This document shows, one piece after another, positions 11,679 through 53,929 of a stretch of 63,562 bases of DNA. Numbering within the stretch: position 1 is the first letter of the stretch; every line of letters begins with the position of its first letter. Below the pieces are notes generated by a model. The model did no database searches. It saw only the letters and a program-made list of their open reading frames with translations, and had not been told where the DNA came from. The stretch covers positions 1 to 63,562 of the forward strand of contig JAAOZP010000016.1 of assembly GCA_011605725.1 (NCBI GenBank), written 5' to 3'. The position numbers and the translations under genes are program-made. Source of the stretch: Nitrososphaerota archaeon (GTDB lineage Archaea; Thermoproteota; EX4484-205; JAAOZP01).

Positions 11679-11864
11679 CTGAAGAGGTTGAGCCTGAGCT
11701 TAACGTCGCCCACCCATGAAGCCCAGGGAAGCGGGCTTCGTTACAATCAAAATCTTTAGACGAGGACTTGCTTAATATACGGTGGAAAACCTTCCGGCCT
11801 TGTTCGTCTGTCCCTTAAGGGAAAAGTTAATTAATCTCTGTAGGCGGGTTTAACGTGCCCGGGA

Positions 11865-11996
11865 AGCCCGGTGGAACCAGATAGGGGTGCCGATTGCAAT
11901 GGCAAGCATGGGGGGCTTTGGATCAGGATGATATAAATATATGGATATGTGAGGAGAAACCCCTTGATGAGAGTTCGAGTCTCTCCCGGGCTACCA
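11865..11996 (+). tRNA. tRNA-Gln(TTG) with introns at 10/11 (11875-11894) and 37/38 (11922-11958); CCA encoded
   Basis: Spliced: AGCCCGG TG GTGC AATGGCAA GCAT G GGGGG CT TTG GA CCCCT TGAT GAGAG TTCGAGT CTCTC CCGGGCT A CCA; CGGT pairs intron GCCG. Confidence 0.88.
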
Positions 11997-12196
11997 TTAT
12001 GTCCTAGTCGGTTCAGGCATTTAAATTGTAGTTTTAGTTAGCACGCGCCATGGCTTAATCTTCCCAATATGAGTTGAAAGCCAGAAATGGAAAACATGTT
12101 CTTAGGCTTCTGCCTGAATATTCGAAAACTGCATAAATACGGGTTCTGTAGCTGTAGCTTGGATTTATCTTGAATACACGATTAGAATTTAAGCGT

Positions 12197-13945
12197 TTAC
12201 GACAGTAGTTTTTCCGCGGCAGAATACACGTCGTTCGCAGCCGTCTCCCTTCTCTTCTTATTCTCTTTCAAGTATTTTCCAGCCAGGTTTTCGAAAACGC
12301 TTCTCGTAATGCGTCCTCCTTTAAATCTTTCAATAGTGCTGTTAATCATGTTTCTAGAGTCGCTGTTTATTTCGTCAAAGACCCTGTATCGCCTGTCAAC
12401 CTCCCCGCCAATTCTGATGTTTACCTGAGAGATCTCGTTGATTGTTTTCAAGATTTTTTTCTCAGCCCTTGATGTTCTCCGCTCGTATTCTCCAATCCTC
12501 TCTCTATATTCTTTAGGAGAAATCTTTCCAACGGCGTTTTTGACTTTAATTTCCTCCATAAGGGTTTCGCAATCGATTTTCTCGCGGAGAGCCTCTACGA
12601 GATCATTCACAAGTCTCTCAACCTCTTTCCCTGCCTTAGCTTCAACAGGCTTAGCAGCTTCCTCTTCCCTAAAGATCTCAGCCACCATCAGTATGAGTAA
12701 TGTTAATAGGCCGAGGAATATTGAAATGCTTTTGCCAGCCTCCAACTGTACTGGAGAGAAGCTGACTTGAAGCGGCTGGGCAAGCATATCTGGCATAGCG
12801 TTGCTCATCGTGATAGAGAATACTTCGCTTTTTTCAATGCTTGTAACGGTTGATCCCGTCGCTATCTTCCAGTCCTTCTTACCCTCTACTTTAACGTTTA
12901 AAGAATACGTGTTAACAATATCCGTATAGTTGGGTAGGCCTATGAGCCGGATGGTGGTTAGGCCTCCGCTTGAGCTCACGAGCATGTTTTTAACGGGAAC
13001 ACTGTATTCGACTATTGCTTCATACTCCTGGCCTGGTCTCAACGAGTATCTTGAATAAACCGTTATAGTGCTCATGTTAGCTATTGTCGACGCACTCGTG
13101 TAGATTTGAAGCATTCCCAGCGCGTCCTTTACCCTTACTGATTGACTAATATTAGTGGGAACGTTTATCTTCAGTATTTCACTTTTAAAGGAATTTCCCA
13201 CGTATCTCAGCTTCAACAGGTCCTTTACATGAACCTGAAGCTGCTCCGTCACGGTTATCTCCCTAGCTAGGTTTTTTATCACGCACCTGTCGAACGATTT
13301 AGAGAAAACAACTCTACCAGTCACATTACCCACGGTCTTCGTCCTGAAATACTGGTTCCACAATCCTATTACAGTATTGTTCAGGAAAATAGGGTTGAAA
13401 TACTGCAAAGAATATCCCTTAATCGCGCCCGTGGTTAAGAAGGTGAAGTTAACGTATTCAGGCATGATGCTGAAGCCCGTTAAAACAGGTAGCTTAAATC
13501 CCACGTAGTCTTCAGTTATATTGTCGCGTTGAACCAGGCCGAATCTGACTGTAGCGTTCAGCCGTTCACCCTGGAAAGGAGGCATCTCTGCAACAAGGTA
13601 GTCATAGTCCTGGGCCTCCTCGAGTTTCATGGTTACCGCCGTTTCATTCTCTAGAAATAGTTTAGGCATGTCTATGGATGAAACAAGGTTTGGAGCTGCC
13701 CATTTCGGGAGCTGAATCTTGAAAGTCCAGTTTGCCTCGCGTAATGCCCTTATCGTCTTAGGGCCCATCGTCAGGTTAACGTTGAAAACAGCAATCGCCT
13801 CCTCATTCATGTTTACCTTCACATGCACGTAGAGGTCTGAAGACTCAAACTGCCCTGAGGTCTTTACACTCGAGAGAAGGCTGGAAACCAGTATTAAAAC
13901 AAGTATAGGAATGAGCGTACATCCGGTTTTTCCACGCGGTTGCAT
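12197..13945 (-). CDS. signal-peptide, single-TM protein with ribophorin I-like luminal domain and coiled-coil tail
   Basis: REITV...VHVKD.LKLRY.G, VKDALGML, RYSLRPG..YEAIVEYSVP resemble ribophorin I/Ost1; TM near aa 410-425. Confidence 0.6.
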   Translation of the reverse strand: MQPRGKTGCTLIPILVLILVSSLLSSVKTSGQFESSDLYVHVKVNMNEEAIAVFNVNLTMGPKTIRALREANWTFKIQLPKWAAPNLVSSIDMPKLFLENETAVTMKLEEAQDYDYLVAEMPPFQGERLNATVRFGLVQRDNITEDYVGFKLPVLTGFSIMPEYVNFTFLTTGAIKGYSLQYFNPIFLNNTVIGLWNQYFRTKTVGNVTGRVVFSKSFDRCVIKNLAREITVTEQLQVHVKDLLKLRYVGNSFKSEILKINVPTNISQSVRVKDALGMLQIYTSASTIANMSTITVYSRYSLRPGQEYEAIVEYSVPVKNMLVSSSGGLTTIRLIGLPNYTDIVNTYSLNVKVEGKKDWKIATGSTVTSIEKSEVFSITMSNAMPDMLAQPLQVSFSPVQLEAGKSISIFLGLLTLLILMVAEIFREEEAAKPVEAKAGKEVERLVNDLVEALREKIDCETLMEEIKVKNAVGKISPKEYRERIGEYERRTSRAEKKILKTINEISQVNIRIGGEVDRRYRVFDEINSDSRNMINSTIERFKGGRITRSVFENLAGKYLKENKKRRETAANDVYSAAEKLLS

Positions 13946-14007
13946 CGTTTGCCGTATTTACACGAGGGTTAAAAATCTTTATTTTAAAGTCTGCTAGAGC
14001 TTAAGCG

Positions 14008-14721
14008 ATGCTTCAAAACTATGTTTCGAAGAAGGCGGTTATCCATAGAACAGTCAGGTTTGAAGGAAACAGTCTGGTTCTTGGGGGAAGCGAGATAAGT
14101 GAGGGAACATACATTGGTTTCAACACGATAATAGGGTATCCTTCTAAGAAGAGCTTTTCAAGCTTAAGAGCCATGCCGGAGGACCTCAGCATTCTCGACG
14201 AACTGTCTAGCGGGGCTAAGATAGGTTCTAACAGCCTAATAAGGTCTGGAAGCGTGATTTACGAGCAGGTTACTATTGGCAGGAATCTAGTAACTGGCCA
14301 CAATATTTTGGTAAGAGAAGGAAGTAGGATTGGAGATAACTGTCTAATAGGAACCGGATCAATGCTTGACGGAAGCGTTTCAATAGGCAATAACGTTAGA
14401 ATACAGTCAGGCGTATACCTTCCGCACGGAACCGTTGTCGGCGAAAACGTTTTCATAGGACCCTACGCGTGTGTCACTAATGACCGCTACCCTGTTTCAG
14501 GCAGGCTGACCCCTGTTGTGATAGGTAACGGCTGCATTATAGGGGCGAACTCGACACTCATATCTGGAATACGCGTCGGCGATAATTCTGTGGTGGCAGC
14601 GGGCTCCGTTGTGACTAGGGATGTTCCTCCAAACACTGTTGTCCTAGGCGTACCGGCAAGAATATATATTACTAGGGAGGAATACGAGGCTAGGAGGAAG
14701 AAGCATGAGCAAGGAGTCTGA
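14008..14721 (+). CDS. hexapeptide-repeat (LbH) sugar N-acyltransferase
   Basis: IGxN repeats, [30 protein letters not shown]. Confidence 0.88.
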
Positions 14722-14998
14722 CGTGCTTACAGAGGTTAAGAAGGCTGTTTCCAACGTTGTTGACCCAGAGATAGGGCTAAGCCTTGGAGAACTCAACCTT
14801 ATTAAAGACGTTAGAAGAGAAGACGGCAAGATAGTTGTAGAGTTCGTCGCGACAACACCGTTCTGTCCTCTGGCGGAGATCCTGGCCCTGATGGTTAAAG
14901 ACGCGGCGAATGCGGTCGTTAAAGACGAGAAGATCCTGGTTTACATTAGGAAGCACATTAACGAGGAAAGCATTAACGAGCGGGTAAATAGGGATTAA
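14705..14998 (+). CDS. DUF59/SufT-like Fe-S cluster assembly protein
   Basis: [24 protein letters not shown]. Confidence 0.88.
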
Positions 14999-15232
14999 CA
15001 AGAATCATGCTGGAGACATTCTGTTTAAACCTAAGCTTGCTCCGATCGTATTTTCTGCCTGTTATTCCTGTATTCTTTAATCAGGCTGTAAACACCACCC
15101 GCGTAAAATGGGAGTATCAGCATCATTGAAACCGTTATGTAGATCGCTTGGGAAAGCAGTGCAAAACGAGTTTAAAAATCTTTTTGAAGGGTTAATCCCC
15201 CTTATTTTTCCAATCCGGTGACACCAGGATTT

Positions 15233-16306
15233 CTAATATACTTTATACCTTAGTATTCCACCTATGCCGCCAATCCTCCTGAATTTTTCCGCGGACTCAT
15301 GTCTTCCGCTCACTATGGTTACCTCCCCACCGTACTGTTCGACAAGCCTTATCATCTCCATCACCCTCTCCCTCAGGGAGCCCGACTGAGAAGCCTGCTT
15401 AACATGTATTATCAGCTGGCTGACCGCTCCTTTTTCAACAGCCTTCCAGGTCTCCTCCAAACCGTAGACAGCCTTCTCCTCAACCAGGTTTTCAAAGAAG
15501 CTTTCTATAGCAGTTATCTCGTCAACAGCCTTCAACTCCCTCGCCACAATCCTCATCTCGTTGCTCCTTAGAAACTCGTTTACTGCTGATATTGTTCCCC
15601 CGGAGGAGTGGAAGCTACCGGCTATGGAGTCTTGAAGATCCCTATAATTGTTCTCCATGAATCTTAAAAGAGCTTCACGTATGACACTGGGGCCTATCAG
15701 GATTATCCTCGGCTTACCTTCTTTAATCCAGATGCTTCTAAGAGTCTTCGACACGTCGTGGAAAAACCTTACGGCTAAGGCTTCACGCTCCTCGGGAAAG
15801 TTTTTACCAGGAATATCCTGCTCAACCCCTAGGCTTTCAACAACCCCGTAATCCTTAACGACGGCTAGCGTAGCGGTTCCGAGCTCAACCGCCACTACAA
15901 TATACTTCTTCGTGGCCACGTCTCGATTTAGAATCCTCCTGTGAATCGGGGAAAGCTCCTGCTTCTCAACCACAACCCTGTCCCCGACGCCTATAGTCAG
16001 AGTGTGATAATGGCCTAGAACACCCTCCATGTCCTCCGGACATTCTAAAACCCTGCCCCTGAGGTGAATAGTTTCTGAAGAAACTTCAAACTCAACCTTC
16101 TCAACCACTATTTTCAGAAGAGCCTTACGCCTGCTTTTCTCGCCTTCATCAATCTTCAGTATTCGCATGGTTTCCGCTGAAGCCAAGTCACCCTCGTCAA
16201 TAAGGTGGTAAACCTTCCACAATTCCTCGCCAGAGAACGGCCTTATTTCTAAGATACCCTTATCGTAATCCACTTTAATCATGGAAGACTCTTCTACCTC
16301 GTTCAA
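15233..16306 (-). CDS. pelA: archaeal Pelota (Dom34) ribosome rescue factor
   Basis: ELWKVYHLIDEGD, GHYHTL, IPGK, AVYGLEE, GGIGGILRY; no GGQ. Confidence 0.9.
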   Translation of the reverse strand: MNEVEESSMIKVDYDKGILEIRPFSGEELWKVYHLIDEGDLASAETMRILKIDEGEKSRRKALLKIVVEKVEFEVSSETIHLRGRVLECPEDMEGVLGHYHTLTIGVGDRVVVEKQELSPIHRRILNRDVATKKYIVVAVELGTATLAVVKDYGVVESLGVEQDIPGKNFPEEREALAVRFFHDVSKTLRSIWIKEGKPRIILIGPSVIREALLRFMENNYRDLQDSIAGSFHSSGGTISAVNEFLRSNEMRIVARELKAVDEITAIESFFENLVEEKAVYGLEETWKAVEKGAVSQLIIHVKQASQSGSLRERVMEMIRLVEQYGGEVTIVSGRHESAEKFRRIGGIGGILRYKVY

Positions 16307-16384
16307 ACAATAGAGACACTGTTACCCAGCTGTAAATGGAGGTGAAATATAAGTATTTTTTATTTCAATCGAGATGCAAACCGC

Positions 16385-16396
16385 TAGCGCGCGCTA
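16385..16396. repeat. palindromic TAGCGCGCGCTA, member of a dispersed (GC)n motif family
   Basis: Same 12-mer at 33930-33941 and inside 62019-62032; variants at 17321, 17419, 38328, 58762. Confidence 0.7.
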
Positions 16397-16576
16397 AGAG
16401 TTAAGAGAAGTAAGCGAATAGACACCTCATGACGCTGTCTCACACTTAGATGCAACAGCCCTATCGGAAAAATCCTGGTTTGGAGAATTATAACGATGCT
16501 GCTTCTAAAACTAAAAACTACGTTGACTCTCAAAAAATAAAGACAACCGTTAAGGACGCCGGAGGAAATCTACGCA

Positions 16577-16906
16577 TCACTCGATTTTAAGTAACAGTGA
16601 GCCTCCCTCATTAATCACTTGGTAAGATGGATCATCATTGATCTTGGTTTTAAAAAATGGAACCCTCGGTCCTGAAACAACCTTACCAGTGGCCACGTCA
16701 AACTTCGCTTTGTGCCTCGGGCAGGTTACAACACTACCCTCCAGAGAACCCTGTGAAAGATCGCCGCCAGCATGAGTACATCTAGCTCCAATAGCGTAGT
16801 ATTTTCCGTCAACGTTAATTATTAAGAACTCCTTATCCCCAACGGTGACCTTCTTCATCTTGCCCGGAGCAAGCTCGGATAACTCGCCAATCTTTACGAT
16901 GACCAT
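16577..16906 (-). CDS. Rieske-type [2Fe-2S] ferredoxin
   Basis: CTHAG...CPRH ligand motifs. Confidence 0.92.
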   Translation of the reverse strand: MVIVKIGELSELAPGKMKKVTVGDKEFLIINVDGKYYAIGARCTHAGGDLSQGSLEGSVVTCPRHKAKFDVATGKVVSGPRVPFFKTKINDDPSYQVINEGGSLLLKIE

Positions 16907-17061
16907 GGCTACCCCTCTGCTTCTTATCACCAGACTATCTTTATCTGCTTTTCCCTATCGTAAGCTCGACGATATATAAATGATGATAACAGGGACGAAG
17001 GCTCTTACGCGCGCCTCGTGTTCCTTTAAGTGCGCACAGTCCTCTCTCAAAATTCAGGAAG

Positions 17062-17076
17062 AGAAAGATTTTTAAT
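17062..17076 (+). promoter_or_regulatory. BRE-TATA promoter of tRNA-Asn
   Basis: AGAAAGA-TTTTTAAT about 25 nt before 17101. Confidence 0.55.
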
Positions 17077-17108
17077 CACCCATTATTCAAAACTAGTCTA
17101 GCCGGCGG

Positions 17109-17242
17109 GCCGGCGTAGTGCGCGTGCGCGTAGCTCAGCAGGTAGTTCAACAGCCTAGAGCAGCGGGCTGTTAACCTAATTGGACAGATACCCGTTGGTC
17201 GGAATCGCTTGGACGCCGAAAGTTCGAGTCTTCCCGCCGGCG
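17109..17242 (+). tRNA. tRNA-Asn(GTT) with four introns: 10/11 (17119-17133), 22/23 (17146-17158), 37/38 (17174-17189), 52/53 (17205-17221)
   Basis: Spliced: GCCGGCG TA GCTC AGCAGGTA GAGC A GCGGG CT GTT AA CCCGT TGGTC GGAAG TTCGAGT CTTCC CGCCGGC G; each intron forms a 4-bp BHB helix. Confidence 0.87.
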
Positions 17243-17462: not shown

Positions 17463-18044
17463 CTAAAGGAGATTCGCCGCTTCTTCAACGATATCTATCG
17501 CCTTATCAATCATCGTAATCTTCTCTTCATCATTCATACCCTTGGAATCAAAGGACGCAATAAAATGGAACCTGTCTCCTTCGCTTCTGAGCGGGATATA
17601 AAAGATTATCTTGATCCCGCTCTTTCTGGTTAACTCCTCCGCGATCTCGTCGGCGTGTCTCAGCCAGTCGACTAATTTCTTCGAAGCCTTTTCAACCTCT
17701 TTCCATTTCTTCCTATCGCATATCATGTCCCACAGCTGGAAGGTGTCGAACATCCAGCGCTTCCGGCGGGACTCCCGCTCTAAGTAACCGTCAATAACTT
17801 CGGAGGGATCTCCTCGTGTTGGAGACCAGATGAAGATTCTGCCTTCAACGTCCTCATGCACCTCAGGGTATGCCCCACTACCTCTTACACACCATTTAAG
17901 CTTGGTTCCTTCGGGGAATTTGAAGTGAGGTTCCTTCTCTATATAATAGTCCGGTGGACTTAACCTCTCTCTTATAACCTCTGGGATATCGTACCGCTTG
18001 CGCAGGTGTTCCTTCACCCTCACTGCAAACTCATCCTCATTCAA
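17463..18044 (-). CDS. putative immunity protein for the upstream nuclease toxin
   Basis: TTGA overlap with giant ORF; C-half (DEIAEELTRKSGIKI..FIASFDSKGMNDEE) homologous to 37551-38210. Confidence 0.7.
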   Translation of the reverse strand: MNEDEFAVRVKEHLRKRYDIPEVIRERLSPPDYYIEKEPHFKFPEGTKLKWCVRGSGAYPEVHEDVEGRIFIWSPTRGDPSEVIDGYLERESRRKRWMFDTFQLWDMICDRKKWKEVEKASKKLVDWLRHADEIAEELTRKSGIKIIFYIPLRSEGDRFHFIASFDSKGMNDEEKITMIDKAIDIVEEAANLL

Positions 18045-53613: not shown

Positions 53614-53929
53614 GGGCGGCAGCCCCATGAGGGTCGAGCGCTTCTGACGCAACCAGCATGCAGCAGGTTTCTCCTCCAGCCGTCTCTTACCAACGCAGGT
53701 AGCTTGCCTTACCGCTGCTCCCTCCCGGGCCTAGCGGGTTCGGCAATTAGGCAGACGCACCCGCCCTACAGCGGGCGAGCCTGCTACTCCTGCCCAGTAA
53801 GGATGGCTTTCACAGACCTGCTGCAGCCGGATGCGTGTAGGCAGCCCTGTCCTCACGGTTATCGGCTCCCCGCGTATCGCCAGTTTCGGGAATAGGGAAT
53901 GGCGAGCTCCCCGAGCCTACCTGCCGCCC
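53614..53929 (-). ncRNA. archaeal SRP (7S) RNA
   Basis: Terminal helix GGGCGGCAG/CTGCCGCCC; helix 8 CCGCTAGGCCCGGGAGGGAGCAGCGG; about 316 nt. Confidence 0.9.

Follow-up and report, generated by a model that had tools for sequence, protein, structure and literature searches.

In archaeal pre-tRNAs, an intron at position n/n+1 is cut only if exon nucleotides n-5 to n-2 pair with the intron, in the motif called bulge-helix-bulge (BHB). By this geometry introns up to 12/13 need bases of nucleotides 1-7, which normally pair with nucleotides 66-72 in the acceptor stem. Introns as early as 3/4 occur in Thermoproteales tRNAs, where 11 nt is the minimum intron length reported (PMC4090602), an Asgard tRNA census mentions few introns in or near the acceptor stem (bioRxiv 10.64898/2026.10.13.758758), and three introns are the stated maximum for an archaeal tRNA gene (PMC8450103, PMC4033280). 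Leaders with a splicing role are described, in the available passages of these papers, only for split and permuted tRNAs (PMC4090602, PMC4033280). Here, we analyzed a window of 63,562 nt (contig JAAOZP010000016.1, positions 1 to 63,562) from the genome of a hot-spring archaeon, Ca. Brockarchaeota (hereafter G000; 2.23 Mb, 93% complete), which contains two tRNA genes, tRNA-Gln(UUG) and tRNA-Asn(GUU), each with a 10/11 intron and an 8-nt leader directly before nucleotide 1 (table 1). Judged by a neighboring pelota-like gene, its closest genomes are metagenome-assembled ones that bear the labels Ca. Brockarchaeota or Thermoproteota. Our comparisons and folding models argue, in our view quite strongly, that this leader acts as a cis-acting decoy, a substitute for the 5′ strand of the acceptor stem.

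A spliced aligner with BHB scoring, combined with manual parsing, recovered about 45 tRNA genes in G000. Only tRNA-Gln(UUG) and tRNA-Asn(GUU) carry a 10/11 intron, and none of the other genes found has an intron earlier than 14/15. Both were missed by ARAGORN and Rfam at default settings, a point of some concern to annotators, given that the spliced aligner itself placed the start of two genes of this kind wrongly, on or close to the decoy copy (Asn of G000, read as 6/7, and a Gln gene of genome G057). The survey may be one gene short: two CAU tRNA genes were recovered, and the third (elongator Met or Ile2), not found by the spliced aligner, is either absent from the assembly or too interrupted for it. 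Both 10/11 introns form HBh′ motifs, with a 4-bp central helix (exon nucleotides n-5 to n-2 with the intron 3′ end) and 3-nt bulges, a flanking h′ helix of 3 bp (Gln) or 2 bp (Asn), and an h helix of 1 bp only. For Asn, 10/11 is the only one among seven equivalent registers to give the full 4-bp helix. Upon splicing, the Gln transcript has cloverleaf stems of 7/4/5/5 and the Asn transcript matches relatives without the intron. In both genes the central helix engages nucleotides 5-8, and the clash with the acceptor stem put forward in the original prediction is real. The genome also contains an RNase P RNA of ordinary archaeal type and two splicing endonuclease genes (endA, 187 and 200 aa), consistent with the (αβ)2 type.

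The leaders, correctly located and spelled from the outset (Gln at 11857, Asn at 17101), were assessed by the duplex energy between the upstream leader and the tRNA 3′ strand in 44 G000 genes. Asn (-19.1 kcal/mol) and Gln (-18.1 kcal/mol) are the two strongest, the third reaching -8.9; when leaders and tRNAs were swapped, just 1 of 1806 pairs attained -15 kcal/mol. Thus, the two duplexes are not due to chance. The leaders had been presented as duplicates of the acceptor 5′ strand, and the resemblance holds; yet the Gln leader copies nucleotides 2-7 only, its final one or two bases matching the T-stem 3′ strand and not nucleotides 8-9, and an exact complement of nucleotides 64-71 (Gln) or 65-72 (Asn) is the better description. 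Counted from the first T of each TATA box, the leaders start at 30 nt (Gln) and 32 nt (Asn), where in most other G000 tRNAs the mature 5′ end is located (median 32), and both starts fall on a pyrimidine-purine step. Judged from promoter spacing, both leaders are likely transcribed.

The consequences for folding were modelled at the level of secondary structure. In G000 precursors deprived of the leader, the acceptor stem has a probability of 1.00 and the splice helix of 0.00; with the leader in place, it occupies the 3′ strand with a probability of 0.97-1.00, and the Gln splice helix rises to 0.35 at 37 °C and 0.04 at 70 °C. Over 127 genes, the splice helix costs a median 5.9 kcal/mol to form in leaderless precursors, 0.6 when the leader is present, and 3.6 when it is shuffled; in G000, adding the leader lowers this cost from 6.9 to 0.7 kcal/mol (Gln) and from 9.8 to 4.8 kcal/mol (Asn). 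As anticipated in the original prediction, the acceptor stem in these models blocks the splice helix when the leader is missing, and the leader removes about 5 kcal/mol of the cost.

The association of leader and early intron extends well beyond G000. All Gln-UUG genes recovered within the genus have both intron and leader, as do those of genomes G022 and G023; for Gln-CUG both are absent in the genus and both present in family f4. A leader-blind pattern for the Gln 10/11 intron, run over 401 Thermoproteota genomes, retrieved, from outside the order, 14 genes spread over 10 genomes, each with a leader, besides the genes of family f4 (leader in 8/8). Among the 10 genomes are a Nitrosopumilaceae, a Bathyarchaeia, a Methanomethylicia, and the cultured ammonia oxidisers Ca. 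Nitrosocosmicus franklandus (tRNA-Gln(UUG) near 1693111 of G376:C1) and Ca. Nitrosocaldus cavascurensis, which carry the element. With a metagenome scan included, and counting a leader when at or below -9 kcal/mol within 25 nt upstream, 124 of 127 distinct Gln 10/11 genes possess one, the classes represented being Brockarchaeia, Nitrososphaeria, Bathyarchaeia, and Methanomethylicia. Early-intron genes of other tRNA types, taken from low-scoring tRNA loci blind to leaders, each have a leader that complements their own 3′ strand: Leu-GAG 7/8 (G023), CAU 8/9 (G019), Met-CAU 12/13 (G018), and Phe 8/9 (G020). A second leader-blind pattern added one Asn and two Phe genes, all three with 8/9 introns and again all with leaders, one of which spans nearly all of nucleotides 60-72. 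Overall, the leader is present in 8 of 8 non-Gln genes whose introns lie between 7/8 and 12/13, G000 Asn included; the search for leaderless 10/11 tRNAs thus failed to refute the proposed decoy for the 3′ acceptor strand. By intron position, the median duplex energy is -16.9 kcal/mol at 10/11, -5.1 at 14/15, and -4.0 at 15/16, against a background (34/219) inflated by leader-bearing controls included on purpose. Introns at 14/15, 15/16, and beyond mostly lack a leader, and none at 13/14 was found in the survey. This is the boundary expected from BHB geometry: with an intron at 13/14, the central helix would lie beyond nucleotides 1-7. Gln genes with a different acceptor variant and 10/11 introns were noted in metagenomes (L206, L223, L253, L258, and L305; L206 is Nanoarchaeota-like); their G-U-rich leaders are weak or lie farther off, and long intron hairpins are frequent.

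How might such a leader operate? Transcription would begin at about the first leader base, as promoter spacing implies. The leader would then pair with nucleotides 64/65-72, leaving nucleotides 1-7 free for the splice helix and allowing the splicing endonuclease to excise the intron, a step that both comparison and folding models support. With the D-arm intact, tertiary folding may favor the native acceptor stem, the leader being displaced by branch migration and RNase P cutting irreversibly. As a by-effect, RNase P would seldom meet its site before splicing; whether this amounts to strict ordering, with splicing before RNase P cleavage, we regard as an even question. We give similar, balanced credence to the broader proposal that, in pre-tRNAs with introns up to 12/13, the leader is a strand-displacement switch which licenses splicing, hides the RNase P site, and is then displaced, and which also acts as a pre-adaptation for new early introns. 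Should an intron be lost, the leader would linger and decay, and in the meantime a new early intron could be tolerated, probably as in G000 tRNA-Asn.

Is the leader instead a neutral by-product, the intron-inserting event having copied the first bases of the gene with no function, and co-transcriptional splicing preceding synthesis of the 3′ strand? Its appearance as a tandem duplication with a period of 8-9 would fit, as would the few intron-bearing genes with weak leaders. Nonetheless, the core opposite nucleotides 66-71 is kept over four classes while flanking DNA has diverged, and the distance between leader and nucleotide 1 ranges between 7 nt and over 15 nt. Changes in the leader also preserve pairing and track those at nucleotides 65 and 67: opposite G68-G70, leaders show 351 G-C pairs, 20 G-U pairs, and 1 mismatch; in 7 of the 8 genes with G in place of C at nucleotide 67, the leader base is C; and where nucleotide 65 is G, it is often C (14 genes). 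Across these genes, the leader co-varies with the 3′ strand, a signature of pairing and not of mere copying. Decayed leaders where the intron is missing (in G019, the Asn genes of G008 and G012, and Calditenuaceae) are compatible with a by-product; yet decay is mostly confined to genes without intron, which points to selection while the intron is present. On balance, we judge a neutral origin improbable.

Several observations do weigh against the decoy function. The pair counts are biased by best-register choice, C-to-T transition bias, and kinship; moreover, the Gln genes may share one origin, which would leave some 9-10 independent events and not 130. Three Gln 10/11 genes, one on a Nanoarchaeota-like contig, have only a weak, G-U-rich leader. 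The Asn splice helix is improbable in the models even with the leader. The original prediction also had the leader hold the 3′ strand until splicing: capture of that strand is borne out in the folding models, but fully spliced precursors still favor the leader duplex, by about 1.3 (Gln) to 4 kcal/mol (Asn). Release would therefore have to depend on tertiary folding and on capture by RNase P, both outside the secondary-structure models. Likewise, the tie between leader and 10/11 intron stands for intron-bearing genes, but perfect leaders without an early intron occur in Asn of G002 and G003 and in Gln-UUG of G018 and the intronless G021, and Calditenuaceae Gln genes have leaders without it too. 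Leaders without intron, together with a duplex predicted to outlast splicing and the fact that the G000 carriers are exactly Gln and Asn, the two that archaea make by transamidation, would suit a regulatory brake on 5′ maturation, hiding the RNase P site of certain tRNAs independently of splicing, with early introns merely accumulating there. However, a full leader copy was counted by eye in only 3 of 150 listed Gln genes without intron, all from one Calditenuaceae genus (with about 7 partial copies, mostly Calditenuaceae), which leaves some 147 without a full leader. The Gln-CUG leader, in addition, is found only in lineages where Gln-CUG has the intron, and Leu, Phe, and CAU leaders only alongside early introns. 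Such a brake we hold to be quite improbable. Returning to the decoy, lingering after intron loss is the simplest reading of leaders without introns, and on sequence comparison the leader is near-necessary for an early intron but no marker of one. In the family Calditenuaceae (f31), the Gln leaders of L185-L192 are graded from full to decayed with no early intron, probably a case of intron loss.

The Asn gene illustrates how an early intron may arise. Its 10/11 intron occurs in G000 only, among relatives, and resembles a repeated exon end plus GC-rich filler. An 11-nt GC tract is common to this intron (17120-17130) and to the 59/60 intron of tRNA-Ile(GAU) (27078-27088), and has no further copy in G000; both introns are absent from G002, whose sequence near the Asn locus is about 89% identical. 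These shared tracts suggest a scar-like process seeding introns, and the Asn 10/11 intron is probably a recent gain, tolerated thanks to a pre-existing leader. Similar TA-flanked (GC)n tracts are dispersed in G000, and the Ile intron of G006 also contains one. As tRNA-Asn(GUU) is the sole tRNA-Asn found in G000, splicing of its 10/11 intron is to be expected, barring an error in the assembly. The gene (17109-17242) has four BHB introns, at 10/11, 22/23, 37/38, and 52/53, and so exceeds the stated maximum of three; a CAU gene of G017 (L151, minus strand, 7600) was parsed with five. A role of the Asn leader in serving the 52/53 intron is unsupported: in G003 the leader precedes a gene lacking this intron, and genes with 52/53 or 53/54 introns are mostly leaderless. 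In a tRNA-Gln(CUG) that is interrupted at 53/54 but has no early intron (L193, G058:C10:72382, minus strand), about 10 bp are possible between the upstream region and nucleotides 62-71. This pairing extends into the T-stem and is possibly an equivalent device for a T-stem intron; other 52/53 and 53/54 genes are without it.

Alternatively, the upstream copy could be the true 5′ exon, the stretch between the copies being a further acceptor-stem intron. A1-U72 is an identity element of tRNA-Gln. The copy includes the base facing nucleotide 72 in many relatives (A in 69/124 Gln genes), which would agree with a true exon; despite the identity element, this base is T in G000 Gln, and C or T in 39/124 genes. 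No earlier Asn register yields a 4-bp helix. The precedent would be the published 3/4 introns of Thermoproteales, but the implied intron of 8-9 nt falls below the reported 11-nt minimum (PMC4090602), and we rejected this identity as highly improbable. No Thermoproteales gene with a 3/4 intron was found in the two groups searched. Other identities were also rejected: a split-tRNA leader/trailer system (both genes are contiguous, and the leader pairs outside the BHB, with nucleotides 64/65-72), a permuted gene (the order is linear, 1-73), and an integrase attachment-site duplication (the 8-nt copy adjoins the gene, with the promoter on its other side, and its conservation extends across classes).

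Table 1. Components of the two tRNA genes with 10/11 introns (window positions)
Feature	Positions	Strand	Remarks
BRE + TATA box, tRNA-Gln(UUG)	11820..11834	+	TATA 11827-11834; top TATA-like match, 38 nt ahead of nt 1; conserved in relatives
Gln putative decoy leader	11857..11864	+	complement of nt 64-71 (11984-11991); kept in all genus relatives having the gene
Gln exon 1 (nt 1-10)	11865..11874	+	splice helix made by nt 5-8
Gln 10/11 intron, 20 nt	11875..11894	+	HBh′ (H 4 bp, h′ 3 bp); 127 genes have homologous introns
Gln exon 2 (nt 11-37)	11895..11921	+	
Gln canonical 37/38 intron, 37 nt	11922..11958	+	
Gln exon 3 (nt 38-73) + encoded CCA	11959..11996	+	contains leader target 11984-11991
BRE + TATA box, tRNA-Asn(GUU)	17063..17076	+	TATA 17069-17076; 40 nt before nt 1
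Asn putative decoy leader	17101..17108	+	complement of nt 65-72 (17234-17241); G1 can lengthen the helix to C64
Asn exon 1 (nt 1-10)	17109..17118	+	
Asn 10/11 intron, 15 nt	17119..17133	+	HBh′ (H 4 bp incl. two G-U, h′ 2 bp); G000 only
Asn 22/23 intron, 13 nt	17146..17158	+	
Asn 37/38 intron, 16 nt	17174..17189	+	
Asn 52/53 intron, 17 nt	17205..17221	+	
Asn last exon (nt 53-73)	17222..17242	+	contains leader target 17234-17241

Elsewhere in the window, a 2445-aa open reading frame (ORF) with N-terminal membrane segments lies directly downstream of tRNA-Asn (18041-25378, minus strand), followed by a 193-aa ORF (17463-18044), a layout between the Asn and Ile tRNA genes that recalls a polymorphic toxin/immunity pair; an ordinary archaeal signal recognition particle (SRP) RNA gene is found at 53614-53929 (minus strand). 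Other G000 contigs contain a two-intron tRNA, probably Arg(UCU), parsed cleanly by neither ARAGORN nor the spliced aligner (C12:28418), and, on separate contigs, a near-identical pair of multi-intron tRNA-Pro-like genes with a 15/16 intron (C8:37521 and C18:9211).

The leader would explain how an intron persists where splice motif and acceptor stem require the same bases, a matter unaddressed in the passages searched of the BHB literature. If the proposal is true, tRNA 5′ leaders, usually deemed disposable, would have a sequence-specific folding role, possibly with an ordering of splicing and RNase P cleavage, and would predict the sites where early introns can be gained; the strand-displacement switch would give tRNA 5′ leaders, over several archaeal classes, a function not described before. 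The closest relatives are the non-canonical and multiple BHB/HBh′ introns of Thermoproteales, Thaumarchaeota, and Asgard archaea, which share the motif, the enzyme family, and the multi-intron genes (PMC4090602, PMC8450103, bioRxiv 10.64898/2026.10.13.758758). In contrast to the situation here, a leader resolving an acceptor-stem clash is not described in the passages and word searches of that literature; the word "leader" is absent from the searchable text of PMC8450103, PMC11291895, and bioRxiv 10.64898/2026.10.13.758758. No description of a decoy leader was found in the tRNA-intron literature searched, major subscription sources lying outside that search. Thus, the splicing chemistry is known, and the putative helper strand is new as far as the searched literature goes. 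In split tRNAs (Nanoarchaeum equitans, Caldivirga) and permuted tRNAs (Cyanidioschyzon, Thermofilum), a discarded flank also base-pairs so that the splice motif forms; there, the leader lies inside the BHB, and the splicing endonuclease cuts it off (PMC4090602, PMC4033280), whereas in G000 it would lie outside, pair with the mature tRNA in cis, compete with the acceptor stem, and presumably be removed by RNase P. Bacterial pre-tRNAs offer another likeness, since pairing of the leader with the 3′ end inhibits RNase P binding and can delay 5′ maturation (PMC9433436). The bacterial pairing extends the acceptor stem onto the RCCA end (PMC9433436), whereas the G000 leader would replace the acceptor 5′ strand, and it is linked to intron position.

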